Below, piece after piece: positions 4,263 through 45,899 of a DNA stretch of 64,000 nt. The translations under genes were made by a program, and so were the position numbers. The DNA is taken from positions 301,480-365,479 of the forward strand of contig JAKMXF010000320.1 in assembly GCA_024704765.1 (NCBI GenBank), read 5' to 3'. The stretch is from Oopsacas minuta. Its lineage: Eukaryota; Animalia; Porifera. Each line of letters opens with the position of its first letter. The stretch's first letter is position 1. The notes beneath the pieces were generated by a model, which was not told where the DNA came from, searched no databases, and saw nothing but the letters and a program-made list of their open reading frames with translations.

Positions 4263-4376
4263 TCTAGTATTATCAATAAAGTATGGATTGAATTAAAACG
4301 CTCTGAGACAGCTTAGTGCCTCAGGTTAGCTTAAGTATTCAACAGATAAATTTCTTGGTTCGATTCGTAAGTAGTA

Positions 4377-7170: not shown

Positions 7171-7829
7171 GGTAACGGAACTTTCGTCCCAGGAAATTTC
7201 GTATCCGGAAATTTGGTCTCTTGGAATTTTCGTATCCAGAATTTTCGTACTCGGAATTTTGCATCCTTTAGCGGTTTTAGCAATGTTTATTTGTTTTATA
7301 GAAAAAAAGAAGATGGATAATGTTTCAAAAGATCGATATAAAGGTAGCAAGGTTGCAAAAAGGTGGTAGAAAGGGCGGGATTTATAAGATATGACGGGAT
7401 CATCAAGGGATATTTATTAGATTAGCTAGCTAAAAGGTTATATAAAGGGTTGATCGGGGATTTAATGCTAGAGTAGATTCTGATGAATGTTTTGTTTTGA
7501 TTTGCTATATGATGGTCTGGGGTGGGAGATATGTGTTAGCATAAGGGAAAAGATGATGGCTAGGTTTCGAACGGTCATTATTGTTGCTAAAGTCGACTGT
7601 AAGGTGTGTTATGTTTGGGAAATTGGGACCAGGAATTTTTTTCGAATTTTTAGCGGAATAAGTAGTGTTTCTTTGTTTTATAGAAAATGAAGATGGATAT
7701 CTATAGTGTTGCAAAAGATGGATATAATATGTAGAAAGGTACGAAAATTCCAGATACGAGATTTCCAAGAGACCATATTTCCGAGACCAAGTTTCCGGAT
7801 ACTAAATTTCCTGAGACGAAAGTTCCGCC
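7171..7829. mobile_element. Non-autonomous MULE-like MITE
   Basis: Inverted ends CGGAACTTTCGTCCCAGGAAATTTCGTATCCGGAAATTTGGTCTC / GAGACCAAGTTTCCGGATACTAAATTTCCTGAGACGAAAGTTCCG. The GAAATTTCGTCC unit also occurs at the ends of the MULE at 17750-19644. No TSD found. Confidence 0.65.
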
Positions 7830-8309: not shown

Positions 8310-10442
8310 CACTTTTAGTTGTATTGATTTTGTCAACTGATATATACTAATTGTGTGTTGCTGATTCCGATTATTTAGTCAGTTTCTCCCTAATACGTCA
8401 AGTTACCTCACAATCCTATTACTACATTTATAGAACAAAATTGGTTTCAACCCTTATACGTTAGATTGGATCTATTAAATTTCTGAAAATATCAATATTT
8501 CATTCACTAAGAATAATGATATAATTGTTACTAATATGAATGGAAGAAAGTGATACTATAAACATGTAATATGAGCACTATTCAATCTAAAAATTTCTCT
8601 TGTTTGACTTTCTTGAACGTTGTTCGTTAGGACAATCTCTTTTTAGGCACCAACAGTAATCTGCCATCATATGTGTGTCCCATCTTCCTTGATATCGCTG
8701 TTCCATCACTTTTATGTCTTGATGGAATCGTTCACCTTGTTCTTCACTCATATCACCTAGATTATCCGGAAATCTATCAAGATGGTCTCTCAAATAATGA
8801 ATTTTAATACTCATATTACAGCCAAGAGCATGATAGCTGTCGACTAACTCTGTGACTAGTTCTTTGTAGTTGGATGCCTTTTTATTACCAAGGAAATTAG
8901 AAACGACATTAGAGAAGCCTGCCACGCTCTCTTCTCTTCCTCGTTCATTGAATCTTTGAAGCTGTTATCTCTAAGTAACTTGCGAATCTGTGGACCTTTA
9001 AATATCCCTGCCTTTTTCTTCTCTTCACTGATTTATGGAAATAATTTCGGATATACTTGAAACAATATCTGTCTTTATCCAGTGCTTTGATGAATTGCTT
9101 CATTAAACCAAGCTTAAAGTGGAGAGGAGGTAGAATTATTTTATTTATATGTACCAGAGAGTTATACTGTCTCAATAACAAAGAAAATAGGGATACTTAG
9201 TGAACCCAGATTGTTGTCCTAATAGAAAGTTGACCATTTTGAGATCAACACAGATGACCCAATCATGTGCAGAGTAGTTAATAATCTCTCTAATATCTCT
9301 TTCACATTATGTACTCCTCTTTGAGTTTAACTGAATATCCTATAGGAATTGAACCGAATATATTTCCATTATGGAGTAGTACACATTTCAGACTCCTTTT
9401 GAAGCTGTTAATAAACAGCCTCCAGTCACTTGGATTGTAGTTCGGAACTCCCATTGCCAGTAGAAGACCCTCAACATTTGGACAAAACACCAAACCATTC
9501 TTTTCGCAGAAATACTGTTGAAACTCTTGCTCCCTGTAACGATATAATGTTACCTTTGTTCCTTGATGGAATAGATTCTTTTCTTTCAATCTAGTTGCAA
9601 GCAACTCAGAAGATTCTTTCGAGAGGTCAAGGTCACGAATTAAATCATTCAATTCCGCTTGGTTAAAGAGAGAAGGCTCCGAGGAAGGACCTCGAAAATC
9701 AACATCATATTCACAGTCATGATCATTGACTTCTGCAGAATTGGCACCATCTTCATCATCATGAGTCCGAGAAACTCTGTGAATATTGGTACAGGTAGAT
9801 CACTACAATGAGGGACTGGTCGAATAGCAGATTCTAAATTTGGGTAATTCAGCAGGTGTCTGTCACTCTTTTTGCAGCCCATAACATTTACCATGCAGAA
9901 ATACCAATCATCGAAATGACTTTTTGATTCTCTCCAAATCATAGGAATTCCGAAAGGGAGGTGTTTCTCTTTACCCTTACTCCAAGACCTCAATAATTCT
10001 ACACAAGATTTACAGACCTTATGAGGTGCCCAACTTTTGTCCTGGTCGCCCAGCTTAACTTTGAAATACGCATGGTAAGCTCTATTCACAAATTCAGTAA
10101 TATTCTGCATCTGAGGTTTCGGAGTATAGTAACCACAAATATAACAAAAAATGTCTGGAGAATTGAAACACTTTCTTTTCGACATATCAACAAAATAGAA
10201 TAACAGACTAGTTAAAAACCAATAAGCAAATAAGACTATTTGAATATATATACTATGTACATAATGTTATTGTTGTAATATGTAATCATGATGAATTTTT
10301 GGCAAATGTCGAAATTTTTCTGAAAATGTAGTTATATGGTTGTGAAAAAACCTGACGTGATAGGAAAAAACTGAATAGATATTCAGAATCAGCGCACCTA
10401 AATTAGTCTAAATCAGTGATCAAAATATAAACAGCTGCAGTA
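8310..10442 (-). mobile_element. Chapaev3-like DNA transposon, frameshifted transposase (~10185-8587)
   Basis: Motifs FCYICG, LGDQDKSWAPHKVC, FGIPMIWRE..H.DD.YFC, LKCVLLHN, LHFKLGLMKQF, MSIKIHYL, SEEQGERFHQDIKVME, MMADYCW. Imperfect ~90-bp TIRs, the left one starting CAC. Confidence 0.8.
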
Positions 10443-10469: not shown

Positions 10470-10905
10470 GAGCCTACGCACCTTTTCATTGACCAAATTT
10501 TCATGTACCATGGGTTACTTCAAGTCGATTATATTTGACTTACAATTCTATTTTTATTGATAAATCAAAATCGGTGCATTTAAGCTCGAATAAATGTATA
10601 ATTGATGGTTAATAAATTATGGAAGCCATATTATCCAACTATTACCAGTTTGTAATGACATCATCTGTTTGGTTAGAAGGGAAAATGTTGTTAAAAGTGT
10701 ACCATTTTTAACAACATTTTTCAATTCCAACCAAATAATATGGCTTCCGTAATTAATTAACCATCAATTATACATTTATTCGAGCTTAAATGCACCGATT
10801 TTGTTTTATCAATAAAATAGAATTGTAAGTCAAATTTAATAAACTTGAAGTAATCCATGGTACATGAAATTTTAGACAGCGAATAGGCTATAGTTACGTA
10901 GGCTG
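10470..10905. mobile_element. Foldback/MITE with ~150-bp inverted arms
   Basis: 10495-10640 is inverted relative to 10740-10873; internal hairpin AAAATGTTGTTAAAA...TTTTAACAACATTTT near 10682-10720. Confidence 0.75.
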
Positions 10906-11204
10906 TGAGTCTATTAAATATGGGAACGCATGCATTTGTCCAAATTCGTATGTATGCATTAGTCAAAATTTCATATGGTTGCGTAGGTACAAATATCAAA
11001 ATCGGTATTAGTCCAAATTTTTGTTGATCGAATGCAGGTATACACGGGAAATTTCGTCGCAAGGAAATATAGTCATTTACTTTGGTTGATTTGAATCTAA
11101 ATACTCTCTGCAACTCACAGCCTGCTCCAGATCCAACTCACGCAAACATCACCAAATTTTGGACTAACACAAACATATGAAATTTGGACTAACGAGGCAA
11201 CCCC

Positions 11205-11955
11205 TAAATTTGGTAGGAAATTTTAATATTTCTCGATAAAATCGAATTGGTACATTTTGGCTCGAATAAACGTAGTATTGATTGATAATAATCAACACAA
11301 GTAATGTGATCCAACTATTCCCAATTTGAATGACATCATCTGTTCGGGTGAAAGGGTAATATATTGTTAAAATATCCCAATTTTATAGTACTGATAAACG
11401 ATTACTAGTGCGTCTTTGATTTCAGGATTAATATACGCGATCTGACGATGTTTGTACATAAATTAAAATTACATTTTGATAAGATATCTCTAAACACTAT
11501 TGTGTAAATCTTGATAATGACCAAATATGGGCACACCGGTTAGAGAAATCGTATCAAAAGGAATTACAAGGGTTAGAGAAGTTGGTATTGTAGTAAATAT
11601 TGGCTGGACTGATTCACAATCTAGTTATAAGTGAATATTGGCCAAAAATGTGCCATCTATGGTATCTAGTATAACTCAATAACGTGACAACTTTATAATC
11701 ACAAAAATTGAAATTTTATGTATAAACATCTTCAGATCACTTGATATTACTCCTGAAATCAAAGACACTAGTGATCGTTTATCAGCGCTTTAAAATGGGG
11801 AGATTTTAACAACATATCATCCTTTTACCCAAACAGATTAAGTCATTTTAAACTGGAATAGTTGGATTACATGACTTGTGTTGATTATTATCTATCAATA
11901 AAACATTTATTCGAGCCAATTCGATATTATCGAGAATATCTACCTACCAAATTTA
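11205..11955. mobile_element. Foldback/MITE with >200-bp inverted arms, related to 10470-10905
   Basis: 11205-11430 is inverted relative to 11745-11955. Shares CTCGAATAAA...ATCCAACTATT...AATGACATCATCTGTT with the previous element. Confidence 0.75.
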
Positions 11956-12776: not shown

Positions 12777-15239
12777 TTAGTTGACATCTTCATCAGAGGA
12801 AGTATCTTCAAAATTATTATGAGAGTGATAATACGAATAAGTGTATGCATGTGTGATATCAAACAGGTTAGTAAGGGCGTCTCCTAAACGTCTAGATTTC
12901 ATTTTCCTATTTGTTTGATTCTCCATTGTCCTACGCATAATCTGGTTAACCTTTAATTGATCTCTTAGCATATTTACGCATCCCATGCTAGAAGAGGAAT
13001 GGAGCAAAGATGCATAATGTGCATAACTAGTCATGCTCTTCCTTTTGTAGCTAATTGTACTGGAGGGTTTGTCGTAAGCTAAAGTCTTCCTTGAGTTGTT
13101 ACTAATATCATATCCCATACATTGGACATTAGTGATCAGGTTGAAATCTAACTGAAGCAAAATATTATTAACAATTTCCTTAATGAAATCTGTTACCATA
13201 GGACTATTAACAATATTATCTTCGATTAAAAAATCTTTACAATTATTAGGAGTTGGATGATCAATCTCCGATACTTCATTTACTCGAATTGTAAACAAAT
13301 TGGATGCAATGTCATCATCTGATTGACTATGGAAGGCTTGTAAATACTGCAATTGAATACTGTTATTATTTTGCTGAATTGCAATGTATTTACAGTCATC
13401 AACAATTTGTTCTAAAGAAAGAGATTGGCTACCATAAGGAGAATATATAACCCTCTCGGTCGATTGAATTAAGGATATCGGTGATTCCTCTGGATATTCT
13501 TTGAATAACAATTGTTTCTCATCTTTTGCACAAGAAACTGTATTGAGAATATGTTTATTATTACACTGATCCTTGTTAAACAAGTTTTCTTTCTCTAGGT
13601 ATTGATTAGGGCGTAGATTTGGTTCGAATAGAGAGTCATTAAAGGTAATATTCGGAGGAGAAGGAATTAATGATGTACGGGCATAATTGGAGTGCGAACC
13701 AGTCTTTGTTAAGTTTAAATAAGCAGAAGACAATTTTGTAGAGTAGGAATTTGACGAAAGGCTTGTTGAAGGCATATTTATTGTATAAGGCAATAATTCG
13801 TTGGAAAGAAGAGACACATTTGTATTTTTAGGACCCACAGTTGAAATTGTTGTAAGAGGGTTATTGGTAGGAAATTTGGGTTGGTGTATTGTTATATGAT
13901 CAGAATTAAGTATTGTCGTAGATTGCATCGGTTGATTACTGTTAATGATATCTGAAAGAGTACTATGGAGCATGTTCGATCTGCTAAGAGTATTTTGAGT
14001 ACGATTATTTTGCATCAATTGTACATCAGTCGTAGAATCATTATGGGTAGAATGAGGAGACCGATATTTAGTATTTGGAGATGCCTTAACAAGGACATCA
14101 TATGGTAACTTTGTTGTGAAGGCTTCTAAGAGGCATACATTACATTCTTGAAGGGAAGAAATATCCGATGGTTGAAGAACGGGAGAAATGATAGGTTCAA
14201 GATGTACTTTAGGAAAAAGACAAGGCTTGTATACGTTAGAAAAGGTATAAGCATCTGTACACTTATCATTTAAAATATTATATGGGATTTCAAGGTGCTG
14301 TGAACTATTTACTTGTTTTGATGGAGATATGCATATCCTAGAAGAATAGAATACATTCTTATAACGAAGCTCTCTAAAAGTTGAGAATCCTATTATAGAT
14401 AGTTCATTCGATGTGATATCCACCCTATGTTTCCTTTTGAAATAACCAATTTGATCATTATTCAGTAGAGAATCGTAATTGTTGGCTTTATTTATGCCCA
14501 TAACAAGACGCGATAAACAACGAGTCTTATAACCCTGGGGATGGATTTCAGGAATTGGGTGAAACGATATTGGAAAGCAATTGGCAGAATATTCTGAAGA
14601 ATTCGCAATTGGTATCATGTTTCGGATTGATGGAGAAAAACCATTCAACTCTGATAAATATTTATTAGTTCGAGGGTTGATTGATGGAATGGCGTTGTGG
14701 GTTTGAAATATATCATGAATTGGTTTTTTGAAATTAATTGGAGGGGCAGGAATAGAAAGAATATTTAGTTCGCTCTGTTTATGTGTGGGAAGTAGGATAT
14801 CAGCTTTAAGAGGTTCGATTCGTCGTAAGTACAATGAGTTTTCAATTAATAATTTTCGATTATTCTCAAATTTAGGAATGTAATCAAGGAAGCGATTTGT
14901 GGAATAGATAAAAGGTTTTGATTGTTTATGAGGTGACTGAGAGACTTTTGAATAAATGTGATGTCTATTCTTAGAATAGGAATGGTTAGAATCTACCAAA
15001 TAACAAATATTGTCTCGAGTATACTGATATGATTGAGGTTGATACATTTTGGGTAGAGAGCTCCAACGGCCTCTGACTTGCTCTCGATGGTCAAAGGATA
15101 ATGATAAGTTGACCCTGGGTAAATTAGTATAGAATATGTCCTTGTTAGAATTGCCTGGTGGGTTATTTCTAACAGTGCGGCATGGTGCAGAGGGACGGAA
15201 CTCCTGTGATTGAGGTGGGACTAAACGTAGAGACATCAT
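12777..15239 (-). CDS. Uncharacterised 820-aa Ser/Asn/Ile-rich protein
   Basis: An uninterrupted 2.46-kb ORF is very unlikely by chance in AT-rich DNA. No transposase or other domain motif recognised. Confidence 0.7.
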   Translation of the reverse strand: MMSLRLVPPQSQEFRPSAPCRTVRNNPPGNSNKDIFYTNLPRVNLSLSFDHREQVRGRWSSLPKMYQPQSYQYTRDNICYLVDSNHSYSKNRHHIYSKVSQSPHKQSKPFIYSTNRFLDYIPKFENNRKLLIENSLYLRRIEPLKADILLPTHKQSELNILSIPAPPINFKKPIHDIFQTHNAIPSINPRTNKYLSELNGFSPSIRNMIPIANSSEYSANCFPISFHPIPEIHPQGYKTRCLSRLVMGINKANNYDSLLNNDQIGYFKRKHRVDITSNELSIIGFSTFRELRYKNVFYSSRICISPSKQVNSSQHLEIPYNILNDKCTDAYTFSNVYKPCLFPKVHLEPIISPVLQPSDISSLQECNVCLLEAFTTKLPYDVLVKASPNTKYRSPHSTHNDSTTDVQLMQNNRTQNTLSRSNMLHSTLSDIINSNQPMQSTTILNSDHITIHQPKFPTNNPLTTISTVGPKNTNVSLLSNELLPYTINMPSTSLSSNSYSTKLSSAYLNLTKTGSHSNYARTSLIPSPPNITFNDSLFEPNLRPNQYLEKENLFNKDQCNNKHILNTVSCAKDEKQLLFKEYPEESPISLIQSTERVIYSPYGSQSLSLEQIVDDCKYIAIQQNNNSIQLQYLQAFHSQSDDDIASNLFTIRVNEVSEIDHPTPNNCKDFLIEDNIVNSPMVTDFIKEIVNNILLQLDFNLITNVQCMGYDISNNSRKTLAYDKPSSTISYKRKSMTSYAHYASLLHSSSSMGCVNMLRDQLKVNQIMRRTMENQTNRKMKSRRLGDALTNLFDITHAYTYSYYHSHNNFEDTSSDEDVN

Positions 15240-15954
15240 TCGAATTAGAGAATAACTGCTATATCAAATGTCAGAAAAGCTAAGGTAAGAACACAAATCG
15301 AACGAGGTGAGTAGAATAAAGGAAAATAATTGTCGGATGAACATTTGACTAGTCGATTTGCTATGAATTCCGCGGTTTATGCCTCAAATCATAACACGGA
15401 GTTATACAGGTTATTCGGGACATGTTCCTAGTGCTCCACATCAAAAATTTACATAGCCTAAATCAGTAAATTGGTGTTACGGATAGGGAAAGATACACAA
15501 GTGTGAAATTAGCAGACTATTCAACCATGTATATTTCCATTACTAATTTAATCCACTTCCACTTATCAGATTTTAACGAAATTAATCTCATTCAATAGAG
15601 GAGAGTTAAACGTTTTACACAATATGATTTTGTGTAAAAGTGTTTACTTTTTATAGGAGTTTTTTGATCAATTGTCTATGTATACGAATTCATTAAAATA
15701 CACCACCTAAAAGTTAGAATTCGATTTTGAAAATTCGTATACACATTTGTGCCAAAATATTGTTTATCTCAATTATATTTCATTAAAATATTGAAAACTG
15801 GCTGAGTTATGGCAATTCAATTTTGGTTGGTAGAGCACATTTAAATCTTTTAAAAATATTTCTGTATAGTAAACTCCCCAACACAAATTAATTGTTACGA
15901 TATATGCTTGATTTTCCTATCTGCAGGAACTTAAGAACGAGCTAACTTTATCAT

Positions 15955-16260
15955 GACAATTTTTTGATATTTGACAATCTATAGATCAATTCATATGCTC
16001 ACTTTGAAATGAAAGATGCATTATTTACCATACTACCAGGCATCAAAGAATAACATAATTTAACAAATAAATGCTTACTAGACACATTTTAACACTTCCT
16101 AGAATTTTAACATATAATGGTTGATAATATATTGTTCTACAAATATTTAATGCCTATATCCAGGCAAAAATGCACCGTTTCTGCAATATAGAATCTACAC
16201 GCAAATACCTTCACCTCCGACCGCATCTTTGGTCCAAAATTCACGAGAGGTTGACAGGCC
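15955..16260. repeat. One arm of the foldback family seen at 24205-25142; target of the Ginger-like insertion
   Basis: Direct similarity to 24820-25140 (GATCTATAGATCA...GGCATCAAAGAA...ATAAATGCTT...GGCAAAAATG). Confidence 0.7.
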
Positions 16261-17749
16261 TGTTGCATAGGATTTTGACCCGAAAGTAGCAATTCCAAAT
16301 CAAGTAATATCAACAATTCACCCTAGTCACATAGTATTTTCCGTATTTATACATGTGTTCCTATATGCACACGCTAACTTTTATTGTTTCTAGATTTCAG
16401 CATCAACACTTATATTGCTTTTGACATTTTTCATATGGATGCGACAGAATATGAAGCAATACGTGGATACCTAACTTGCCATGACTGTCATAATCTAGAT
16501 CCGAACTAGCCATGACTGTCAAACCTTTGCTGCTCTACCACAACGAGAACTTCAAACTATTTCTCCTCCTGAAGAACCATGGTATCATTGTGGGTTGATC
16601 TCATACTCAATATGTCTCACTATACTTGGATTTCAGCACATTCTTGTTATCGTGTGCTACCTGAGTAAATTTGTAATTGCCCACCAACTCAAGACAAAAA
16701 ACGTCTAAAGAAATATTGGATTGTTTACAAGAAATTTATCTCTCATTCGGCGTACCTAACATCTTCCAACATGATCAGGGAACAGAATTCTCAAGCATGG
16801 CAAATCATTCTTTCTGAACGATTTTGGACATTGGGATAGGACTCAACTACATAACAAATTCATTATGGTTATCTGTAGCAATCTAAAACATTCCCTTTCT
16901 GCGATCAACTGTATTTCTAAGCTATCAACTGTATTTCTAAGCTATAAATTCCATCGATGATATATGTGATTAATATTGAACATCAGATATAAATAGAACA
17001 ATATTATAGCTGCTCACTGTATCTAGTACTAATATGCACAACTTTCTATAGAGTATTGACTAGGATCAGGTTTAATTTATACTCAAACATACTACAATAC
17101 ACTAAAGACTAACTAATGCTTCTTGGATATTTGAAATTGGGGCTAGGTTTGTTGTTTCCTATGCACACTTCGATTTTTACTGTGCCGACTATACTTTAGA
17201 ATAGTAGCCCAGTATTGAAATGATTGCATATATTTTTCTCCGTGAAAGCCCTGTAGCCAAAACTGGATAGAATTTTGGTGATATATGGTGTGAGAAGGAT
17301 TGAAGATATTCGTCGGGTGTGCTTCTCCCCTTTGCTAATCAATCGGACACCAAGTGCCACTATTTCACACTGGTCAAATTTTTGTCTGGCCTCTAGCAAA
17401 AATTATGAAAGGAAAGGTGCCAAAATGTTCTCACCTTTCGAAAGAGAAAAAAATTCTACGCCTTTGTACTCTTCTAGAATTATTATATTGGTTATAGTTT
17501 TTATAGTTTTTTATTCCCGAATTTGACACTCTAGAATTTGTGCCGATCTAATCTCCTCCAGTATTCCCTTCTATTAATATTATTTATTCAAATGATAATT
17601 ACTGCCAACAATTGAACATTATATGGGCTGGATGATCATATTAATTTGTAAATAAATTGTTTGATGGATTTTATATCAGAGCGGAGCGAGGAAACAATAT
17701 AAAATTACAAACTGTGCCGACAGCTTCGTCTATTAAATAATTTTGTTTA

Positions 17750-19644
17750 AAAAGAATCCCGGAAATTTCGTCCCCTGAAATTTAGTTCCTGGATTTTTCG
17801 TCCCCTGAAATTTAGTTCCCGGATTTTTCCTCCCCAGGTGATTCCCTAACCCTTGTTATTCAGGTTATAGTCATGCATCTAGAGGATAAATATGGTTTAA
17901 TTAATTATTGAAATACGCATGTGAGGAATAATACAGTAGTCAAAACTCAAAATTGTATGCGATTCCCCTAAGATATGTTGGCTATATCCCAGTTCTCATA
18001 ATCTCCAACAAGTAACTGTATACGCTCATCTCGTTCAATGGACTTTTTGCTGCGTACTATTGTATCACCAGACTCCCACTTTATCAGTTTGGCCTCTTGT
18101 AGTTACTGTTCTCGTTGCAAAAATTTAAACAGCTTTGACACACTAGGGTGGGAACAACCAAAACTAGAATTAAATGCATTGTGTCACCCCTCAACTTCGT
18201 TATTAGTTCGTGGTAGTTGTTGACGTACCCTTTCGTACATGTTCCAGATTCTGATAGGAAAGGGCGGGATCCTTCTACTGTTATTAGGAAGTCTTTTTAC
18301 CAATATAGTTATCTTCAAAATAAGCAGCAACTCCTAGAGCAGATTCTGGATAATCTGCCATCAGAATATTGAAACAGTCCATCACATCTTGTTCTGGCAC
18401 AAAAGCAAGGCTGGGAAGCATCTTTTATTTCAGGAGAATTTCTCTATCTTCTTGATAGATTGTTGTTAACCCCTCTGATTGTATTATTCTATATATATTT
18501 TGGGAGAGATGAAAGAAGCACCCCGAAATTACAGCAAGAATTTTGTCCTCAAATACATTAATTACTGCTTTTTCGAAATCAGTCATTGTCGTGGAAGGGT
18601 CTAATTGTGGTTGTATTTCGAGGAGTTTAGAGAGAAGTCTGTTGTAAGTAGAACCAGCTTTACAGGTAGTAATGCATATATGCAAGGGTAGAAGAATCCA
18701 TCTCTCTCTGCATGAATGGTATACAACTGAAAAAAATATTCTGGTACTACCTTGAAAGTTCCATCAGCATACCAAGTTTCAGATTCTGAAAGAAGAGCAA
18801 AAAATTTTGGCTTAGCAAATATAATCATCCGATTGACGTCGCCAAAGCCAGAGTCGAAAAGTAAAATGGCTCCCCTTTAACCGTCACTTTGTATTTTTCC
18901 GCAATGATTATTTCAGCAGCACAGGTAGGATTCCCACAGTTTTCTTCAGATTTGCTTTTGTGTATACGGATGATCTCTTCACAAATTCCAATTTAGGGAG
19001 TTGTGCAATACTTGAAGATCCCATTTGCTCGATACCATGTGAGAGAATGACCCTTGTACTTTCTTCAGAATTTATTGAACGTTCTTTACTATATTATAAC
19101 CTCGAAGCATTTCGATTCGTACAGGGTTAGATTCATGCGCATGACTAGAATAAATGTCGTTTATCTGTGTCGGTTTGATAATTTCATCTTCTTTTGTGTG
19201 CATACGAGCTTTACACGTCACCCCATTTTCACATACCCACTGTTGTACTTCCAATGACGACTTTGTCAATGTATACACGAACCCTTGGAATGTAGCTTTA
19301 TCTTTCCCCTTATAGTTTTAACCAATTCAATTTTGAGTGGAGCAGCGGCCATTACAATGTTAAGTTTATGACAAGTGAATAATTCGTGGGACTCTGATTG
19401 ATCTTATTCTTAATATATGTATCCTTATATACCACGTGGAGTATTCACGGATTATTTACTTTTGCCAGACAGTGGTCAGGAAGTATACCTTTCAGACCTA
19501 CGATATGACTAGTGTAAATGATATACATCTATTGTATCTGCAAGACTAGTTTGGTTTCACTAAAGATACAGGAATTTAGTGTATCTAACTCATGGGATAT
19601 CCTGGGGGCGAAATTTCCAGGACGAAATTCCCGGGAAAATTTCC
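17750..19644 (-). mobile_element. Degenerate MULE (Mutator-like) element nested in Ginger intron 1
   Basis: Probable start at 19352 with a FLYWCH-like N-terminus (RGK...FVYT...WVCE...CKAR...HAH), then WYADGTFKVVPEYFFQLYTIH, TDFEKAVIN and GCFFHLSQNIYR. Imperfect TIRs built from GAAATTTCGTCC units; no TSD found. Confidence 0.85.
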
Positions 19645-21161
19645 ATTTACCGTATAAAAGTGGCACTATTAATTGGAGGCACTATGTATATTAGGATTAA
19701 ACCTGATCTTTCATAGTGCCACGTTTTAAATAAGGATTTACGAATTGATGCTAGTATTTTCGGATGTAAAATGTATTGAATTAATCGTTTTTTAGTCTTT
19801 CTAACTATTGTTATACAAGACTGAATACATTGCGCGTAGTAGATTGCTATTGTCCGGTTACTTACTTTTAAAATAGGAAATTCAAGAATTTCACAAGAAG
19901 ATAAATGTCATTACCAGTAGAACCATAGCATACTACCCACAAAGTAATGGACTTGTTGAGTCACACAACAAAATATTGAAAACGTGAGTATTGATGCTAA
20001 ATATATTAATTTTAAGCTCTTATAATAAATAAGTGGGTGATGATAATGTATACATAATAAACGTCATAAATACTTAGATAGCTTGAATCTATCCGACACT
20101 TTTTAAAAATAGAAAAATTAACAAGATGCAATCTGACGGGGGCACGGAATGGACAGGGAAATTACAGACAGCAGTACTTGCAGCAAATACTCAAACCAAA
20201 ATCTCACAAGCTAGACATCCTTTTATCTCGTGTTTGGGAGAGACTTTGATTCATCTACCCTTCTCAATCTTATCATGTCCCCAACTAACCCCGGATTATT
20301 AACCAAGATGCAGATTAATCACAACACATGAAATTATTCAAATGGATGCAAACTAACTATGCCCATTTGACTTTCCTATAATTGATAACGAATGGATAGA
20401 AAATCTTCCTTCAACACGTAGAGCTGCTAAGATGACTGCTATTGAAAGCATCAAGGCTGGTCAGAAAATTCAAAAGAAAACATATGACAGCATAGTTAAA
20501 CACAACAGGTAAGCAATAACGAAACACATTCTTGTTGTGATGTAACATGTTGGAATTTCATACATCATCTCTTACTAAATTCAATTAAATTCACTGACTG
20601 TTGTATAATCAGGTAAATATGAAATAGTCTTGAATCGGAACTAATTTATTGTTTCCTCAATTATATGAATTCTTAAATTCCAAAACACTTACTTTTAGTT
20701 ATAAAATTAGCAACATTACAACTGTACGTAATTGGCAGATTATAATTCTTTGTATAATCATTGTTTAAACTTTAGATCAGAATTTGTGGAAGGAGATGAA
20801 GTACTTGTACATAATATAAAGAAAGCCAAGCGACTCCCAGGAACAAAAGATGCAAGGAAATATTTGGGATCATATACGATAGAGAAAGTTAAACCAAGCC
20901 ACCTAGTTGCTCGCAAAGACCCAGATAATAAAACAACCAAATTACCTATCCATCTATCACGAAAATATCATTCTCGGATGAACGAAAAAAGGCAGGTTCG
21001 AACGAAGACCGGCATATCAAAGAAGTCTAAAAGATCTCGCAAATTCCCTTCTAGCGGTAAATATATTAGCGAGACAATATTGTACTGAACTATAACTAAT
21101 TGGCTCAGCCCATGATTACGGACATATAAAACTAGTTGTGTTCTGTATTGATTCAATAATA

Positions 21162-21229
21162 CAGTAAAACTCGAACAAGACGTACTAATTTCTGTTTCCT
21201 GAGGGGTACGTCTTATCCGAGTTCTACTG
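21162..21229. mobile_element. Minimal pogo/Tc1-type MITE in Ginger intron 4
   Basis: CAGTAAAACTCGAACAAGACGTAC ... GTACGTCTTATCCGAGTTCTACTG; same family as 37059-37241. Confidence 0.7.
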
Positions 21230-23877
21230 TGATAGCAATCCTACATTTCGCATATTTATTATGTATTTAGATTCTTTGGATGATATATTGAACCTGGATA
21301 CCATAGAAGAAACATTTGAAACACCGCAACAACACTCAATCTATGAAAATATCGACTCTGAGCTACCTCAATTGAAACCTCGAATACTATCAGCCCTTGT
21401 CAATAACATCTACTTAACCCAACTACATGAGAAACTCGCTACAAAAGCTGCATCTCTAACTTCATTGAATTTACTATATTCTTACCATCCACCCAACGAA
21501 CTAAATTTTGAGATTAGGGAGAAACTTGCTGTATCAGCCGGTAATTGGTACACAGAATATCGTTCCTCCTATCTTACTGAAATACCTGAGGAGACATGAA
21601 GAGATCTTGACTATCCAATTGCTGTTCTATTACCAGTAATAATTGAGTTAATATTCCCAACTGAGCAAGTTCATGAGATCATTTAAATACCAGAACAATC
21701 TATACAAAATGCATCAGATCTTGTCCCATGCCCCTAAATGGGGAGGAGAGTATAACAACATCGTGCAATCTAACACCTGTTCTATCACAATATATTGGCT
21801 ATTCTTAGTTCGAATAAAGCAACCATCATAGACTCACTGAAGTTAATCGGAAGTACACATATTGAAGCTGAATTCAACTACATATTCGAATTGGCTGCTA
21901 ATTGTGAATTTGAGAAACTTCGAGAATATGTTGCTACTAAAATTGGGCTTGAAGTTATTTATGGTTCCTCAGGATTGATACGGTCTTACGATTTCTTTGG
22001 ATCAGAGGGTAACATCATCAAATATTAACGAACCGAGGATTTGTGTCAGAACAAATAGTTCACTATCTTACAATGCCACCAATAAATTGGGACAGCTCCC
22101 ATGATTAGAAATATTGGTGCCATTATTACTAACCTGGAATCATCGGTTAACGTAAGTCTCGTTCCTATTAAATGTAAGTCTTGTGGATCAACTATTGCTG
22201 TCTTCTAGATGATATCTGGTCGATTCAACTCAATACCTATCTTGTTAACAATTTAAATCGGTCATCTACCTTAATTGCCAGACATTTTTGCGAGTGATAT
22301 TGACAAACACTTTATCATCAGCCACAACCAACGGACACTTCACTACCAACTTGCTGACTTTAGTATATTGAGTAAAAGACACTCTATTCAATCATATACT
22401 GAAACGGGCTATTCTATAAATATGACAGAATGAGAAAATCTTATCCAACTATGGAACTGTTACACTTTCATCGGATCTATCAATACTGAGACTATCTCTT
22501 GCACTCTTCTGACTAAATCTTGGCGATTTACGATGTAACACTTTTCCACCATTCGGAGCGTTCAAAGGCAAGGTACGTCGAACTTGCGTGGACCTCAACC
22601 CGAGGTTATTCAGGCAACGAAATCTCTATAATGGCGAGCTCAGATAATGTAAACGCGACCTGCAACAGCACATCCCCAGTGCCGCATATAATCACTCTAC
22701 TATCTCAAGTGTATTGCTAGGAAGGCAGCGCAACTGACGAATCTACGACTATACGAAATACAGCATTTAATCAGATACAAGCGAGTTTCTTATCTAATTT
22801 GTACTTTTATTGTTTCCTTATTTGTGCCCGGTCCCCCCTTACAGCCACCCCCTAACTCTAAATGTTAACCTCACCTTTTATATGTATAGTTGTAGATTTG
22901 CAGTATAGCAGCGAGTTTGCGTGCGAACACACGAAATCCGCTTCTACACTGCAACACATACGTATATGTACAATAAATCTTAATTTAACAGACGCCATAC
23001 AGTACAGACACGCGAAGAGCTAACGGACCCGGAAGATGAGACCACCGTAGCTGAATTGTTTTGTCTATAGAAATTGTAGTGATATTCATGAGTATGCAGG
23101 GCGCAAAAGGCTCATGGCTTCCACCTCAACACTCAATATTTATCAATATTCTACCAGGACTCCAGTAACAAATGCATAGCCTACGCGGGTGAATTTGATG
23201 AGCATCCCATTTAAGTGATATACTCCTTAAAGCTTGGTAGAAAGTATAGAGAAATGGACAAAGATGAAATCCCTTACAATTCGTATACAAGATCTCCCGA
23301 ATATTCATTATGATGCTAATGCTTTTGCATAATATTAGTTATTTAATAGAAAATATAACATATAGACTAACATGTTAAATTATTGAGATGCCTAAATATA
23401 GCTGAGCTATAGTATTGTACAGTTTTTTGCAATACAAAACTCCATATCCTTATTCGAAAAGATGACTTTCATTAATCCGAAAACAATGACCTTTCCTCGA
23501 AGATAGAAAAAGCTAATACACAAAAACAGTACTATAGTATAGCTGAGCTATATATAAGTTATTTGTAAATTATTTAAGTAGTTACCTATACAATTATCAA
23601 ATTCCTACTACCTTCGGTCCAAGTAATATTATTGTAAAATATTTATATACTGTCCGTTTTTGGCATATTGGATATTATAATACGTAGTTGGAACATATTT
23701 TACTTGCTATCAAAACATACTCATTACTGGAGTAATTCTTCTAGAGTCCAACTCTAGTTGACATATTTATTCAATTTTTACGTATAGTTAGTCTAAGTTG
23801 AATTACATTACGTAACGAAAAGTGTATGGAAATCAAATAAGTCTAAGGATAAATTAGTATCTAATTCATTACTTTTA

Positions 23878-24104
23878 GGGTCAAAGTCCGACGACAATAA
23901 TCATTATATGCTGGTCAAAATCCTACGACTATTATACATTATATGCGGGTCAAAATCTAACCACTATAATACCTTATATGCGGATCAAAATCCCACGACT
24001 ATAATACATTGCATACGGGTCAAAATCCAACGACTATAATACCTTATATGCGGGTCAAAATCCTACGATTATAATACATTTTGATGTGGATCAAATCCTA
24101 CGCA
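23878..24104 (+). repeat. Subterminal ~35-bp tandem array (about 6.5 units) of the Ginger-like element
   Basis: Consensus GGGTCAAAATCCTACGACTATAATACATTATATGC; each unit contains the TIR core. An inverted core copy lies at ~24116-24132. Confidence 0.85.
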
Positions 24105-24204
24105 TAGATTATATCGTAGGATTTGACTCGCACCATGGATATGCTATTAGGATTTTGTATTGCGGGTCAAAATCCTACGCAACAGGCTTTATATTAGAGT
24201 AGGC

Positions 24205-25142
24205 ATAGCCTACTAAATATAAGGCACCAGAGATGCAGTATTACCTTAAAGCATATATAGACATGGTTTCTTTATTGCAGAAAAATGCATTTTTGGCTGA
24301 ATAAATGTATTACATTTTTGTAATACATTAAATTTTGCACAAATGAATGCAAAAACCTTCAGGAATGTGTCAAAATATGTCTCTAGTAAGCATTTATTTA
24401 GTAAAATATGGCATTCTTTGATGCCTTGTAGAACGTCAAATATTGCATTTAACGACTCAAATTGAATAAATGAAATGATCTATAGATCCTTTTATACAAA
24501 ATGTCAAAAAATTGTCATTCAAAAGTTGGCTCGTGGTTGAGTTAAGGTAGAGACCATGAACGGCAAATTTTAGTGAATATTCAATTATAACTCGACAATC
24601 CCTAAAATTTTCGTAAAATCAGAATAGTCAATTTATACTCTATACCAGACTCCCCATACCCCTGCAATACATTTTGATATGATATCTCGCATCAATGTGA
24701 CGATGCTCATATATGGTCATTATCAAGATTCCGCATTACTCTTCAATTATTTCATATATTCACTAAAATTTGCCGTCCATAGTCACAACCTTAACTCAAC
24801 AACGAGTCAACTTTTGAATGACAAATTTTTGACAATTTGTATAAAGGATCTATAGATCATTTCATGTATTCACTTTAAGTTGATAAATGCAATATTTAAC
24901 GTCCTACAAGGCATCAAAGAATGATATATTTTACTAAATAAATGCTTGCTAGAGATATATTTTGACACATTCCTAAAATTTTCAGCATTTATTTGTGTAA
25001 AATTTGATGTTCTACAAATCTGCGAAACATTTATCCTGGCAAAAATGTACCTTTTCTACAATACAGAACCATCTATATAAATACTTTCAGCTAATACTGC
25101 ATCCTGGTACTTTACTGTTAGGCCTAATATTTAGTAGGCTAT
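24205..25142. mobile_element. Foldback element with ~390-bp inverted arms
   Basis: 24205-24590 is inverted relative to 24745-25142 (ends TAGCCTACTAAATAT / ATATTTAGTAGGCTA). Confidence 0.85.
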
Positions 25143-25797
25143 TCCTGATAATATGTTTTGGTATGATATTTTGACCATTGTGAAGTAATCCTGAATATGT
25201 CTAATTATGGTCATTTTCAAGATTGCGCAATAATCTTAAGAGATATCACATCAAAATGTATCATCAGAGTATGAGAAGTTGGGCATGTATTATAATTTTT
25301 GCTATCTTGATAAGACTACAACTGTATGTCTGTAACGATTATCGCGTTATAATTGAATATTAACTTAGAAGTGCAGTACATAGTGTCAGCTGTAACTCAA
25401 GACTTTATCACGACTATTTTTTTTGATCCTTTTGATAAATTTAATTCGACTAATTCATAATTCAACTATGAAATCAAAGATCAATATTATTTGTTTTATT
25501 TTCCAGCATATCAGCCTATTAAGCAATCACATGACGTCTTTGAAATATTTTCTAGATGTGAAATGTGCGATTTATCACATCATATTTGTGAAACTTGATG
25601 ATAGTCTTCCAATCAATTACGATCACTTTTTATTCATCCCTTGTCCAGAAAATAATTGTAGTCTCAAGTCCTTATATTACGTAGTTCACGATAAGGCCTA
25701 CCATCACCCTCAAATTTCCCCCCTCAATGATATAATAAACTCGTTATTGCCAATTTATAGTAGATAACCGATTTTCTTCTATGCTTTAACATTGATA

Positions 25798-28700
25798 CCT
25801 ACCTCCCATTAAGGAACATCTCGCTATAGTGAACAGGATGCACTCTTTTGTGTCCCAAATATCACCTAGCCATCCAAATGGACCCCGCCCATTAAAGAAC
25901 ATAAGGGTTTATCATAATTCGTGGGGATCAACATGACAGTCAGTGGGTTGAATATTGTTCTTAGTTTGTGGGGATCAGTGTGATCGATGTTGTTTTGTTC
26001 TTTACACGACTGATTATTGAAATGACAATTGTTTATATCAAAAGGAAGCCATTTCCCATTGTTTGGTTAGCTTACATATACCACTGTCTATATGAAGATG
26101 ACAGTTTGTCATCTTCCTTGGTCTGTTTATCTCAAAACAGAATCATCACAATGTCTTCAACAAAATCCAGAAAGAATCTAACCTTTTCACAGAAGTTAGA
26201 GATATTGAAGGAAGGTGAAAAAAGAAGTCAGCGGACAGTTGCCGCTAAGTTTGGCGTTTCCTTTGGAGATGTGAACCGCGTGGTTTAGCGAAATTTAGAA
26301 CTGGGAACATTGGCCAAGAACAACCCCCATCATACTGATAAACGCGTAAAATCTGAAAACGAGGATCTCGATGAGAAATTGTGGGAGTGGTTCGTTGCAA
26401 CCCGTTCCAAGAAAATCCCAGTGTCAGGTCCTATCCTCCAAGAGAAAGCCCTGGATATTGCGACAGAACTCGAAAAGACTGACTTCAAGGCAGCAAATGA
26501 CTGGCTTGAAAAGTTTCATCTTCGCTATAATGTCAACTTCCAAGTTTTGAGTGGTGAGAGAGCAGGTATTGACCAAGCCGTCGTCAAAAACTGGAAGCAA
26601 CGCCTTGACTCTCTCATCAACGAATACAGCCCTGACGACATCTTCAACTTCGATGAAACAGGCCTCTTCTACAAGGCATTGCCAACAAACTCTCTCGTGC
26701 AGAAGAGAGACTCCAGCCATGGGAACAAAGTACCAAAGGAGCGATTTACTATTTTCCTCTGTTTCAATATGTCAGTAACAGAGAAATTCATTCCGCTAAT
26801 TATTGGGAAGATCAAAAAGCCCGATGCTTCAACAACATCAAGTTTGTCTCAGTGCTGTCTGTAACTTGGAAACACAAAAAGAAAGCTTGGATGAACATAA
26901 CCATGTTCGATGAGTGGCTGAAAGACTTAGACCGCAGCATTGCAAAGAAGAAGAGGAATATTTTGCTGTTCGTGGACAATACTCCCAGCCATCCCAAGAT
27001 TGAACTCTCTAATGTTGTGATCAGGGTTGGGGTCAATTACATTTGTTCAATCACAATTACGAATCAAGTACAAGACAGGTAAAATGTTCAATTACAATTA
27101 ATTAAAATTACACTGTATAAATATTAACTTTTAATTATGAATGCAGTAAACAAGATAGGGCATAAATTAAGACAATCTTAATAACTAAACAAATTATGAG
27201 ACAAATATTAAACTAATCTACTATTTAAGAAGGATGATACTATTTCCAATTCAAATTTAATTCTTAATGGTAGATAGAGTTTCACCTTATGAACATTAGT
27301 TCTTCAAACCGATTATCTGATATCCTACATCTCTCCGGTTTGAAAACTTACCGGCTATCGAAAACAACCTTTCAACCGGGGCTGAAGAAGCGGGGGTTGC
27401 AAGATACCACAAGGCAACCTTTGTAAGCTGAGGAAACTCTTCCTGGTGTTACTGCAAATAGATTAATGGCTCAGCATTCTCTGAGATCGTTGGTTGAGAG
27501 AGATATATCTCCACCTGGTTTGTGACGGTTCCTTCGAATTCGATATTGGACTACTTTGAGATACCATAATGTTGAATAGTTTGCATATTTTCCTTGCAGG
27601 TGATGATGTTGTCTCCAATTCATCCATTTCATTCGGTCCATATTGTAATGAGACTTCTTCAATAAGGAGATTAGTGTAACGAGTAACTTCATCAGGTCTA
27701 CACCAGTCTAATTTCCACCTTAGATCAAGGATTGCTGCCATTTGAAATCCTTCATTTTGTTCGTATCGTGCAAAACGGATATTGACTGATGATATTAAAG
27801 TTGTGACAATTTGTGATTTGTATTGGGAAGAAAGAGTGGTTAGTTCGGATCTCATACCGCGAATGCAAGGTAGTATAAGGCTAGCTGTGACGAGGTCCTG
27901 ACCTTGGAACTGATCTGTTGCTATCTCAAAGGGAGTGAGTATCTCTGTGATTTCTTAGAGGATATTCATTTCCTACTTACTAAGTTTGCCAGAGAAATCT
28001 AACATTTCCATTTTCGCAGGATCCGCTTGAACAATAGCCTTTAGCATCTTATTAATATTATTCCACCTTGTATCATTCTTTGCTTTTAACTTTATATCAT
28101 TTTAAATAACTCTGTGGCCAAGGTTGAATGGCGGATGTGGCTAACCAGTTTGGACGCTTTAGTAATAGTATTCGATATTGATCCTATCTCCTTCAGTCCA
28201 TCCTTAACTACTAGTTGGAGAGTATGTGCAAAGCAGGGGACGTGTTTAGGGAGGTAATCCAAAATATTGAAACCAGGAAGGAATTCCATTTCATTGCCCT
28301 CATCATCACTGTCATTATCACTTAGGTTATCTACTTCAAATCAGGAAGAGTTACGAACGCTTTAATCATATTTGCAGCATTGTCACTGATTATGTAGTGA
28401 TCTTTTTCTCAATATTGAAACTACAAGTGACTTGTGTTGGTAGTTTAGAAGTATGTTTTCAGCAGTGTGAGGACTCTTAAAGCGACGACAGGCTAATATG
28501 ACACTCTTAAGTTTAAAATCTTCAATAAAATGTCCTGTTATGCCAACATAACTTCTCATATCTCTACTCGGCCAGTGGTCTAATGTCAAACAGATAGCAT
28601 CAACTGCGTTGAGACATGTGAGAATGTTGGCATGAAGTTGAGTTGTTCTCTCAGGTAGGAGCCTGGTACTAAGATGTTTACTGCTAGGTAAGATGTAAGC

Positions 28701-30562
28701 TGGTTGAGCTTTATGTAAAAGTGCACGGAAGTTTGGATCATCAAATCTGAAAAGTGGTTGTAGTGAGAAAGCAATAAATTTTACAACACTTTTTGTAAGA
28801 TTTATTCGCCTAGGGTCTTTTAAACTTCAAGTGTCTGATGTAACAGAAATAAATTTCGTAATACTCTGATCGGACGGTGGACCAGTCTCGGGATTTATGT
28901 CAACCTCTGGATGATGCCTCTAGTGATTAGAAAAAAAGTAATTTGACCTTTCAATGGTGAAAATGTAACTACGTATTCTGAAACTTACCTTCATGTGAGT
29001 ATGGAAGTTGGAGGTTGCTGTATATGAGCCAGATACCAATTTGTTCCAGTGTTTACATTTCAATTCAAATATGCCGCTAGTATGATTTTCAGGAGGATCA
29101 AAGTGATCAAATATAGGAGGAGACATTGTAAATGAAATTTTAATGTGAATACTACGTTGCAAGTTGTTATAACAAATGAAAGTTCTAATTTATATTATAT
29201 TTTGACAATGACTAGTATATTTGGCTTCTTTGTTAAATGAAAATATTGATCGTTTCATTTGTTTTTTCACAGGTTACATGCATTTTTTTAGTATTCATGC
29301 TGCAGTGATATTTATAGGAATTTTGTGTTTATGAACACACAATTCCAATCTTAGTGTGTTCGTGATACACAAAGTTTGGAACTGTGTGTTCTCGAACATA
29401 CAGAATTTTATAATTCACTGGAACATTTCACATCCATGAAAAACCAAAATGTAGTTGAAATATAATTGAAGTATTACACCAAATTGGAAATCAATTACGA
29501 TAAATTACGATTATAAGACTCCTCAAATTTTCAATTACAATTAAATTACAATCATAGAGTAATTGTAATTGACCCCAACCCTGGTTGTGATCAAGTTCTT
29601 CCCTGCCAACTGCACATCAGAACTTCAACCCATGGCCATCATCAAGAAATTAAAAACCGGATACAAGAAGCGACTGCTAAGTTGCCTCATAGTCAAAATC
29701 GACTCCATTGAGACTGGAGATGAACTTATCAAATCCGTTAACGTCCTAGTTTCCATCTACTGGGTCGCACAAGCTTGGCAAGATGTGACACAGGAAACTA
29801 TCCAGAAGTGCTTCGCTCGTAGTGGGTTCAATTTCTTCGAGGAATTTCGGTTATTCGAGACATCAGATTCAACAGAACTAAACAGTATAATGAAAAACTT
29901 CGCAACAATTTCCGAGACAGTCTCCTGTCACACCGAGGACTATGTGTACATTGACAGTGGGAACCAGGTTCATACTTTGGAATCAACTGACTGGGAAGCT
30001 GAATTTCACTCATGTATCAATGATAGGACATCATACTAGATGAGACTTCTCAAGATTTACCAGAACATTCAGTGCATTCTGACTTGGATGTTAACATTGC
30101 TATAGTGGTACTCAAGTTATATGCGATTCACAATTCTAGTGTCCTATGGTCAATCGTCAGTACTGAGATGTTGTTTATGGACATATTATAGAAAAGGGTT
30201 GCCACATGTCTCGGAAATTTCTCGCAGACATTTTCAAAGTTTTATCAATTGGACTATTAACTACATTTATTAATACAGATTCGTTAAACGTGTACCTACA
30301 TAGGTACTCAATGGCGTGTGTTATACTGAAAATGGTTAATAAAATACACTAAATTAGTTATTTAATCAACGTTCATTACGTCCAGTAGGACATCTTGCAT
30401 ATGTTTACAAATAAACATTCATACACCTCTTATAGTTTATGGTAGGTCCTTCATAATCTATAGGAGGTACATAAACTATACAAACCTCTTTTCAAGGAAC
30501 ACCTCCATATTAGGGACACTTTCAGCAGTCCCAAAAGTGTTTTCTAATAGGAAGTTTTACTG
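25798..30562 (+). mobile_element. pogo/Tigger-like element (CENP-B HTH + DDE_1 transposase, ~26151-30039), split by a hAT insertion
   Basis: Motifs RKNLTFSQKLEIL, LDEKLWEWF, PVSGPILQEKA, FNFDETGLFYK, KKAWMN, LLFVDNTPSH, resuming at VVIKFFPANCTSELQPM. The right TIR ends TTTTACTG|TA; the left TIR is degenerate. Confidence 0.88.
27022..29583 (-). mobile_element. hAT (Ac/ZBED-like) element with intron-containing BED-finger transposase (~29126-27280)
   Basis: Perfect 20-bp TIRs CAGGGTTGGGGTCAATTACA and an exact TSD GTTGTGAT (27014-27021, 29584-29591). Motifs CKH...HTHMK|RHH, LTLDHW...SYVGITGHF, CFAHTLQLVV, NDTRWN, KVFKPERCRI. Stops and frameshifts present. Confidence 0.93.
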
Positions 30563-32389: not shown

Positions 32390-33748
32390 GAATTACAGGT
32401 AGGCCTCAATGCGACAAATGTCCTGGCGTCATGATTTCGACCAAATACAAACTCATCACGAAATTATTGCGTAGAAATTTCGAGGATAGGTTAGAATGTT
32501 TTCATACACGAGGCACAAAATGTCAAGTACACTGCATCGTCTAAGCGGCCAAGAGCACTTTGAAATTTAGCGGTTTCATACTATGCACTAAGCTCAAAAT
32601 GAGGTAATAAGTTGTCCGGAGCGCTCAAGCAAGCGAAGGGTACCCATATTTCCGTGTTTACGAGCGCAACTTTTGCAAGGAAGTACCGTGTAAAGTTGAT
32701 AAATAGTGTTACAAAATGGCAAAATACGCGTATTAGCTAGGAAAAGCCTTGTTGCAAATACGATTTGCTATTCGGCGGTTTTCACTGTAGAATAATTGCG
32801 TTTTAATAGTATAAATGACTTTAAAATGCTTAATCATCGTTAAAATTTGTCACTTTTCACGGCTGTTAGCTACAAAATTTCGAAAAAAATTCGAATTTCA
32901 ATTAGTACAGTATATAGTATTCCATACGCTAAGGGGAAATCTCACAATTTCTGAGCGTAAATTAATAAGCTGAATCATAAATTTTGAGTTGTAAATTTGT
33001 AATATTCAGATAAGGTGTACATAAGGTGTACAGTTCGACTCCACTTAATAGAATCACATATTGACTAGACCGTTTTGATCCGGTCAAGCGGAGTCATTTA
33101 ACACTACTTGCATGCATAGGTATAGTTGCAGGGGGGTTGGGCATTGTCCCATACCCTGGATTTTGTTAAAATGATCTTTACGATAGAATCTTTCAGGGGA
33201 GGTACTTAGGTAGTATCATAAAAGGCGGTCTGTGTGCAAGTTAATGCTGAAAAATCCTCCACTTTTCTCAGTTCATTAATTTTCTCCATCCTATGCAAAT
33301 AGATAAAGGGATATTCTTTATTAGTACAACGGGCGTTCAAAAAGTTCCCGACTCTACCCCATATTTTGTAACTAAACAGAATATACATGTACAATTCTTA
33401 TATTTTTTCTAAATAGTCACCATTAACGTCTATGACTCGTTGTAGACGATCTGACAATTTAAAAAAATACATTTTTATAGTCTCGGGGCGGGATGTCTTT
33501 TAGGGATCTCCAAATTGCGTTCCCTAGGTCGATTCTGGTATCAAAATGCCTGCCTGTAAGGTCCTTTTTCAACTTTCCAAAGAACCAGAAATCACAAGGA
33601 GCGAGGTCAGGTGAGTAGGGTGGGTGATCTAGCTCCACAACTCTCATTCTATCCAACTCTGACTTTATAAGCTTACTTTTATGTGGCCGTGCATTATCAT
33701 GCAATAATCGCATGCCCCACTGTCCAGACTTTGGTGTCTCCTCTCCCA
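32390..33748 (+). repeat. Copy 1 of a near-identical block repeated at 62601-64000
   Basis: Colinear with 62601-64000 apart from about a dozen scattered differences and one non-matching patch (~32640-32698 vs ~62850-62953). Confidence 0.95.
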
Positions 33749-37007: not shown

Positions 37008-37058
37008 TACTAATAAAGTTGTAATTCTTTCATTCATACAACTTGATACTTGTAATTA

Positions 37059-45761: not shown

Positions 45762-45899
45762 TATGTAGATTGCAGGATACGGTATTCTATAAAAGTTTGC
45801 GCCTGGAAATTAGAGCGCCATAAAAACAGAGTTGGGTACACTTAGGTAGAACCAAACACTACTGTTATTGTAATTCATACATCTGTGAAAAATGAGTCA

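Follow-up and report, generated by a model that had tools for sequence, protein, structure and literature searches.

Introduction

Ginger1 elements, as described by Bao et al. (2010; PMC2836005), are DNA transposons with TGTNR ends, terminal inverted repeats (TIRs) of about 40 bp and 4-bp GC-rich flanks, whose single spliced gene joins H2C2, DDE integrase and GPY/F modules to a C-terminal papain-like isopeptidase domain. According to the sections of that description drawn on here, this last domain is OTU or Ulp1 in all but one family, and a role for it in transposition was proposed; the target is CCGG or CCGT/ACGG, the proteins have 500 to 800 residues, four host species are listed and the present host is not one of them, and Ginger1-5_HM has four introns, the first of them GC-AG. 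We analyzed a 64-kb stretch of DNA from the glass sponge Oopsacas minuta (contig JAKMXF010000320.1; hereafter, the window), in which nucleotides 16261 to 24184 had been predicted to form a decayed DNA transposon of the Ginger type, encoding a Gypsy-like integrase in spliced exons. The ends, the exons, the Pfam matches and an intact family protein support this assignment. Altogether, we consider it likely that the locus is a dead copy of a multicopy, five-exon Ginger1-like DNA transposon, the intact 894-residue protein of which would combine a Gypsy-type DDE integrase with a predicted USP-fold cysteine protease that removes ubiquitin or SUMO to aid transposition.

The locus shares with Ginger1, and especially with the four-intron Ginger1-5_HM, the TGTNR ends, the TIR of about 40 bp, the 4-bp GC-rich flank, the single spliced gene with H2C2, DDE and GPY/F modules and a predicted C-terminal papain-like isopeptidase domain, the number of four introns and the GC-AG first intron. 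It differs from Ginger1 in carrying a predicted USP fold in place of OTU/Ulp1, in the GGCC/GGCT flanks of the one copy read instead of CCGG/CCGT, in the length of its protein (894 residues) and in its sponge host. Because neither the CCGG/CCGT target nor an OTU/Ulp1 domain is found, we file it as Ginger1-like and not as a typical Ginger1. Ginger2/Tdd elements lack GPY/F and have an AT-rich RTATAY target, whereas here GPY is present and the target is GC-rich; Gypsy retrotransposons have long terminal repeats (LTRs) and, in pol, a reverse transcriptase (RT) and an RNase H, neither of which was found in this element. Mobile elements with a ubiquitin-family protease also occur in other transposase classes (Mutator-Ulp1, Helitron-OTU/VTD), and the Helitron-borne deubiquitinases are active enzymes, according to the part of the study cited (PMC9741609). 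A Trichomonas protein that joins transposase_11 to Peptidase C19, mentioned in a section of PMC2836005, likewise involves C19 but is not an integrase-type Ginger. No Ginger element with a USP domain was found in our literature searches, and Repbase or Dfam may already hold such families. In the O. minuta genome paper (PMC10280926), neither the text nor two files of the supplement contain the word "Ginger", but the repeat table of this paper may omit the class.

Element boundaries and insertion site

The ends of the element and their surroundings are as follows.

15928 to 16256, no strand: left half of an older foldback repeat
16257 to 16260, no strand: left target-site copy, GGCC
16261 to 16300, + strand: left TIR, a 22-bp core with a weaker match to about 40 bp
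23878 to 24102, + strand: subterminal array, 35 bp x 6.5, with the inner TIR motif in every unit
24146 to 24184, - strand: right TIR, core at 24163 to 24184
24185 to 24188, no strand: right target-site copy, GGCT
24189 to 24543, no strand: right half of the older foldback repeat

The 22-bp TGT...ACA TIRs on which the original prediction was built stand: the two cores (16261 to 16282 and 24163 to 24184) are identical at 21 of 22 positions, both ends begin with TGTTG, in agreement with the TGTNR termini expected of the Ginger superfamily, and a gapped alignment extends the pair to about 40 bp at 82.5%. The window is rich in repeats and contains 264 inverted 22-mer pairs at 21/22, 7 of which are bounded by TGT..ACA. 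Three observations lead us to regard the pair at the element ends as genuine: a complete gene of the family lies between its two members, its inner motif is repeated in the 35-bp array inside the right end, and excision restores a palindrome. The array units are probably sites of transposase binding. A pattern search of metagenome contigs with the TIR gave 0 matches, and that further copies share these TIRs and the 4-bp duplication is no more than hinted at by other contigs.

The 4-bp flanks are also present, but as an imperfect duplication, GGCC on the left and GGCT on the right agreeing at 3 of 4 positions in the window copy, the one copy in which the flank sequence is readable. Ends placed 3 bp further out still form inverted repeats, because GGCC is palindromic; they leave no flank duplication and were rejected. 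When the element is removed in silico, a palindrome of ~690 bp is restored (69% over 706 columns), with its centre about 11 nt off the junction. The element is inserted into this pre-existing foldback repeat, which it splits. Kin of the interrupted repeat form a cluster at 24201 to 25400, and remoter kin lie at 10481 to 11919.

In line with the earlier claim, neither RT nor LTRs were found: the element ends share no LTR-like direct repeat, no RT or RNase H Pfam match was obtained in the element frames scanned, and 12 RT-bearing pol proteins compared with the element matched it by their integrase part alone. A string resembling RNase H near 22560 to 22620 lies 3' of the stop codon, has no Pfam support and was rejected.

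Gene structure and decay of the window copy

The gene and the insertions that it has received are listed below, with residue numbers of the family protein.

16436 to 16799, + strand: exon 1, with the start, a remnant N-terminal motif, the CC half of the zinc finger, D143 (16597) and D202 (16773); frameshifted
16475 to 16498, + strand: site at which about 92 codons (family residues 14 to 105) were lost internally, and with them the HH half of the zinc finger; a duplicated 13-bp stretch fills the joint
16800 to 19876, + strand: intron 1, 3,077 bp, GC..AG in the window copy, enlarged by nested repeats
17739 to 19655, - strand: nested Mutator-like element, with a FLYWCH finger (E 5e-8), a MULE transposase (E 1.5e-5) and inverted 15-bp repeat arrays at its ends
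19877 to 19983, + strand: exon 2, with catalytic E238 (19958)
20113 to 20508, + strand: exon 3, end of the integrase core and linker; stops and frameshifts
20776 to 21056, + strand: exon 4, GPY/F module (GSY in the window copy); open frame
21155 to 21231, no strand: 77-bp hairpin, a miniature inverted-repeat transposable element (MITE) in intron 4, missing from other copies; related copy at 37055 to 37119
21271 to 22516, + strand: exon 5, a helical domain of unassigned fold, then the predicted USP-fold domain; terminates at the stop
21729 to 22513, + strand: predicted USP-fold protease domain, with Cys645 (21778), His849 (22380), Asp864 (22424) and zinc cysteines 744, 747, 780 and 783 (747 is a stop in the window copy)
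22972 to 22977, + strand: AATAAA, the sole one after the stop codon and a possible poly(A) signal

The five exons and four in-frame junctions lie where they had been predicted (16799/19877, 19983/20113, 20508/20776 and 21056/21271) and coincide, without a gap, with residue boundaries 210/211, 246/247, 382/383 and 476/477 of P0122, one of the two full-length O. minuta proteins of the family; these are gene models, not RNA. The introns measure 3,077, 129, 267 and 214 bp. Introns 2 to 4 are GT-AG and intron 1 is GC-AG, its donor being GC and not GT; in another contig (run X5), a canonical GT donor occupies this position. The D-35-E spacing is exact across junction 1, with D143, D202 and E238 all retained in the window copy; together with the GT donor at the same site in the X5 contig, this exact spacing backs junction 1 independently. 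The integrase motifs HDQGTEF and YPQSNGLVE were read correctly at the outset, but PFYLVFGR, which comes after a frameshift and a stop, does not stand in a single frame, and the GPY position reads GSY.

The window copy is identical to P0122 at 684 of 801 residues (85%) and is dead. It carries 11 stops and about 10 frameshifts and lacks residues 14 to 105; the script counted 12 frameshifts, a number that includes the deletion junction and an artefact at the edge of the alignment. On its broken exons Pfam recognizes rve alone, and weakly (E 0.02 to 0.09), and the frames scanned in exon 5 and the 3' region gave no Pfam match. The boundaries of the 7.9-kb element hold, but about 2 kb of this length are later insertions, so that the family length is about 6.2 kb once insertions are taken out and the deletion is restored. 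Other contigs skip the Mutator-like element, joining 17738 to 19656, and intron 1 probably contains further repeats from about 17174. The exon-1 deletion, the nested elements and the C-terminal USP-fold domain had all been missed by the original prediction, and exon 5 is not integrase.

A short element at 7173 to 7827 shares its inverted 15-bp repeat arrays with the nested Mutator element, of which it is likely the non-autonomous form. On the intron-4 hairpin, Rfam gave one sub-threshold miRNA match, which we judged to be chance. Just 3' of the stop, the stretch from 22514 to 22850 is non-coding, richer in G+C and CpG and densely covered by contigs of two organisms; it gave no Rfam or Pfam match.

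A multicopy family with a Gypsy-type integrase

A search with exon 5, translated with X at stops, returned 17 relatives, the closest of which are O. minuta proteins. The cluster at 90% has 29 members (22 named), and each of the 15 members listed is an O. minuta locus on a contig of its own. Two O. minuta proteins, P0122 being one, are full length at 894 residues and identical to each other at 869 of them (97%), and the family as a whole consists of many dispersed, often truncated copies at 88 to 99% identity. The suggestion of an uncatalogued family is thus half right, as the copies are already annotated, as hypothetical or "Gag-pol fusion" proteins. Searched with the exon-5 alignment, metagenome, genome and viral contigs gave no confirmed locus. 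The exon 4 search gave one viral locus (L001), where the match consists of 23 residues of a Lys-rich stretch.

Intact P0122 aligns to rve (E 7e-11) and to Integrase_H2C2 (E 1e-11), both above the Pfam cut-offs, which goes against the refutation proposed earlier, a product that fails to align to the rve domain. It has GPY at residues 413 to 415, and its Tyr12, Pro19 and Tyr40/Phe41 fit, by eye alone, the YPYY motif found upstream of the zinc finger in Ginger1. Gypsy pol proteins that include an RT, at about 30% identity, make up nearly all of the best 120 of 178 matches to the integrase. The exception among the matches listed is P0204 (O. minuta LOD99_3154), which is RT-free and 45% identical over 417 residues, and the C-terminus of which is unrelated to the USP-fold domain and gives a weak OTU match (E 0.074, below the cut-off). 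In a FastTree integrase tree of 116 rows, computed with 6 of 121 proteins omitted (P0225, P0250, P0257, P0271, P0278 and P0291) and containing no named Ginger1 or GIN1 sequence, P0204 is sister to the family with a support of 100, with long-branch warnings and unresolved deep branches. P0204 represents a second RT-free integrase family in O. minuta, likely a conventional Ginger1.

The same searches bear on a different origin, in which the locus would be what is left of an LTR retrotransposon of the Gypsy type, or a host gene with a domesticated, GIN1-like integrase, and would lie by chance between inverted repeats. Besides the predominance of RT-bearing Gypsy pol proteins among the best integrase matches, it could draw on the abundance of inverted pairs in the window and on the Atlas neighbours, where GIN1-like-named clusters hold ranks 2 to 4 once RT clusters are skipped, a lead only. 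However, it is contradicted by the four introns, by the lack of RT/RNase H matches and of direct terminal repeats, by the many dispersed and often truncated copies and by the interruption of an older palindrome with a 4-bp near-duplication. We consider this origin largely refuted and very improbable.

A predicted USP-fold cysteine protease in exon 5

Exon 5 is predicted to encode a USP-fold cysteine protease, which forms part of the reading that we hold likely. It is preceded by a domain that is confidently helical in our first structural model (residues about 487 to 625). This first AlphaFold model, built from 22 sequences, had a pLDDT of 61, and its top matches were USP-family folds. With 60 sequences, the second model reached a pLDDT of 74 and a pTM of 0.74; all rows listed by Foldseek belong to the USP family (best E 4e-8), and in VIA-align rows 1 to 35 are USP-family chains (Z 12.1 to 8.9), followed by viral papain-like proteases, the best row being USP35 (Z 12.1, root-mean-square deviation [rmsd] of 4.6 over 224 residues). 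The Atlas neighbours that bear any family bear UCH. No OTU or Ulp1 match was found by Pfam in the family protein or its close members. With USP/C19 enzymes and USPL1 (C98; as far as the cited part of PMC8983731 goes), the domain shares the thumb-palm-fingers fold, the Cys-His-Asp order and a four-Cys zinc finger, and its Cys and His lie 204 residues apart and its His and Asp 15, versus 220 and 16 in USPL1; it differs from them in its low identity, in giving no Pfam match and in its fusion to a transposase.

Among relatives at 43 to 63% identity, the predicted triad is kept in nearly all covering rows (Cys645 in 62 of 63, His849 in 56 of 57 and Asp864 in 51 of 51), and each of the four zinc cysteines in 63 to 64 of 63 to 66; 103 of 108 proteins were aligned in this set, and the counts include near-copies. 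In 147 more distant representatives the corresponding counts were 61 of 65 for Cys, 33 of 36 for His and 26 of 29 for Asp. A profile search of the full library returned 189 proteins with E no higher than 0.001; most of the best 150 are short fragments, which is what decayed repeats would be expected to yield. One distant relative of the domain, P0460, has before it a short stretch that appears to resemble the histone H3 tail around Lys9 and that we take to be a possible histone mimic.

A captured host fragment, carried passively as a pseudo-protease or an interaction module with no role in transposition, would fit the lack of a Pfam or PDB sequence match and the presence of inactive USP folds (Pan2 and a splicing factor) among the fold matches. 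Such a passenger is nonetheless improbable in our view, for the triad and an Asn of the oxyanion region are fixed down to about 25 to 35% identity, and in two intact copies the domain continues the reading frame of the integrase.

Ubiquitin or SUMO as a possible substrate

In the part of PMC8983731 considered here, USPL1 is distinguished by a Phe after the catalytic His and by the loss of blocking loops, whereas ubiquitin USPs have a Tyr together with an upstream His. The domain could be a SUMO isopeptidase of the USPL1 type, which by convergence would take the place of the Ulp1 of other Ginger1 elements and would counter SUMO-dependent silencing or repair control. The catalytic His is directly followed by Phe in 57 of 57 close rows and 33 of 36 distant ones, and in both models merely a 2-residue turn precedes the His strand, the second blocking loop being absent; judged from sequence and models, two features thus hint at a USPL1-like SUMO protease. 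No His is found five positions upstream of the catalytic one, one distant member matches Peptidase_C98 (E 0.0024), and USPL1 comes first in the fold ranking of model 1 (Z 12.1). In model 2, however, USPL1 is only fifth, tied with ubiquitin USPs (Z 11.5 versus 12.1), and eleventh in Foldseek. The Tyr that USPL1 has five residues before its His is here Ile, Leu or Val in 37 of 38 rows, the C98 match concerns 1 of 26 members and is below the cut-off, a different member matches UCH (E 0.042), and the fold lists also hold compact viral and bacterial USP-like enzymes. Such SUMO specificity is conceivable but, on balance, rather unlikely, and we retain the wider reading of a predicted protease for ubiquitin or SUMO.

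A bolder scenario, which we hold to be a little more doubtful still, would make the family a distinct Ginger lineage, recently active in glass sponges and with its own GGCC target, in which OTU/Ulp1 was replaced by a compact, Pfam-missed USP-fold subfamily that removes SUMO. If this were true, integrase-type transposons would have acquired a de-SUMOylase on two occasions, from folds unrelated to each other, which would point to SUMO-dependent silencing as a host defence that is countered.

A proposed model of transposition and of the fate of the window copy

What is observed directly is a TIR-bounded, dispersed and intron-bearing integrase gene without RT. From there, and from Ginger and integrase biology, we propose a model in which the spliced mRNA would yield a single protein that binds the TIRs and the 35-bp array of the right end. 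Its DDE domain would cut at the TG..CA ends and move the element by cut-and-paste, and insertion into a GC-rich site would involve a 4-bp stagger. The protease, tethered in the same polypeptide, might strip ubiquitin or SUMO from the transposase, from chromatin or from repair factors by the insertion complex. In this model, the window copy would have to have been mobilised by other copies. Since then it has had 92 codons deleted, has accumulated stops and frameshifts and has received the Mutator element and the MITE. Protease domains were likely exchanged between sister families, to judge from sequence, because described Ginger1 elements carry OTU/Ulp1 and the nearest integrase relative, P0204, ends in a weak OTU match.

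Several points weigh against the reading of the element as a Ginger1-like transposon armed with a USP-fold protease. Pfam UCH was matched by 0 of 60 close members and, in the wider set, by 1 of 26 (E 0.042), and neither profile A1 nor profile A3 matched a PDB sequence. Identity to solved USPs is 10 to 16%, with an rmsd of 4 to 5.5, and the triad was assigned by motif, order and conservation and not by geometry. Its conservation is not exceptional taken alone, because 92 of 260 columns of the close set are conserved at >=95% and near-copies are counted. The linkage of protease and integrase is seen solely in O. minuta gene models and in the window copy, and the part given to the protease in transposition is our inference. 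As to classification, the GGCC/GGCT flanks depart from the Ginger1 target in one imperfect case, the nearest relatives were placed by a tree without a named Ginger1 sequence, and the OTU match of P0204, on which the domain exchange partly depends, is under the Pfam cut-off.

Were the reading correct, a third, unrelated protease fold would sit on one transposase scaffold, beside a sister family that likely retains OTU; selection would therefore favour the activity, namely the removal of ubiquitin-family tags, over one captured gene. The domain would mark a USP-fold subfamily that Pfam does not detect, with the 189 representatives of the profile search, and would account for a set of sponge genes that currently bear the name "Gag-pol fusion" or are called hypothetical. 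The window copy is no more than a fossil, but the intact natural copies, which are 97% identical to each other, would make substrate and role directly testable.

Other features of the window

Beyond the element, the window contains further repeats and genes. Two repeat copies 30 kb apart, at 32390 to 33703 and 62601 to 63955, are 98 to 100% identical, with a 37-bp inverted partner at 36982 to 37018, and may be a very recent transposon copy or a duplication. Inverted arms at 5132 to 5402 and 48916 to 49172, 43.5 kb apart, are up to 98% complementary over 54 nt and could be two repeat copies or the ends of a large element. Decayed frames at 4488 to 5009, 8587 to 10266, 26289 to 30039, 34123 to 36373, 44925 to 47096, 50036 to 50845 and 61145 to 62426 are, by motif, what we take to be mariner-, pogo-, hAT-, P- and Mutator-like transposases. 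On the - strand lie an intronless open frame of 828 codons, Ser/Asn/Pro-rich and without a Pfam match (12777 to 15263), an intronless gene with a weak SMI1/KNR4 match (3657 to 4292; E 6e-4) and an intronless homologue of ESF2/ABT1 (41222 to 42139) that served as a host marker and whose closest matches are ENA/Logan proteins at 53 to 69%.

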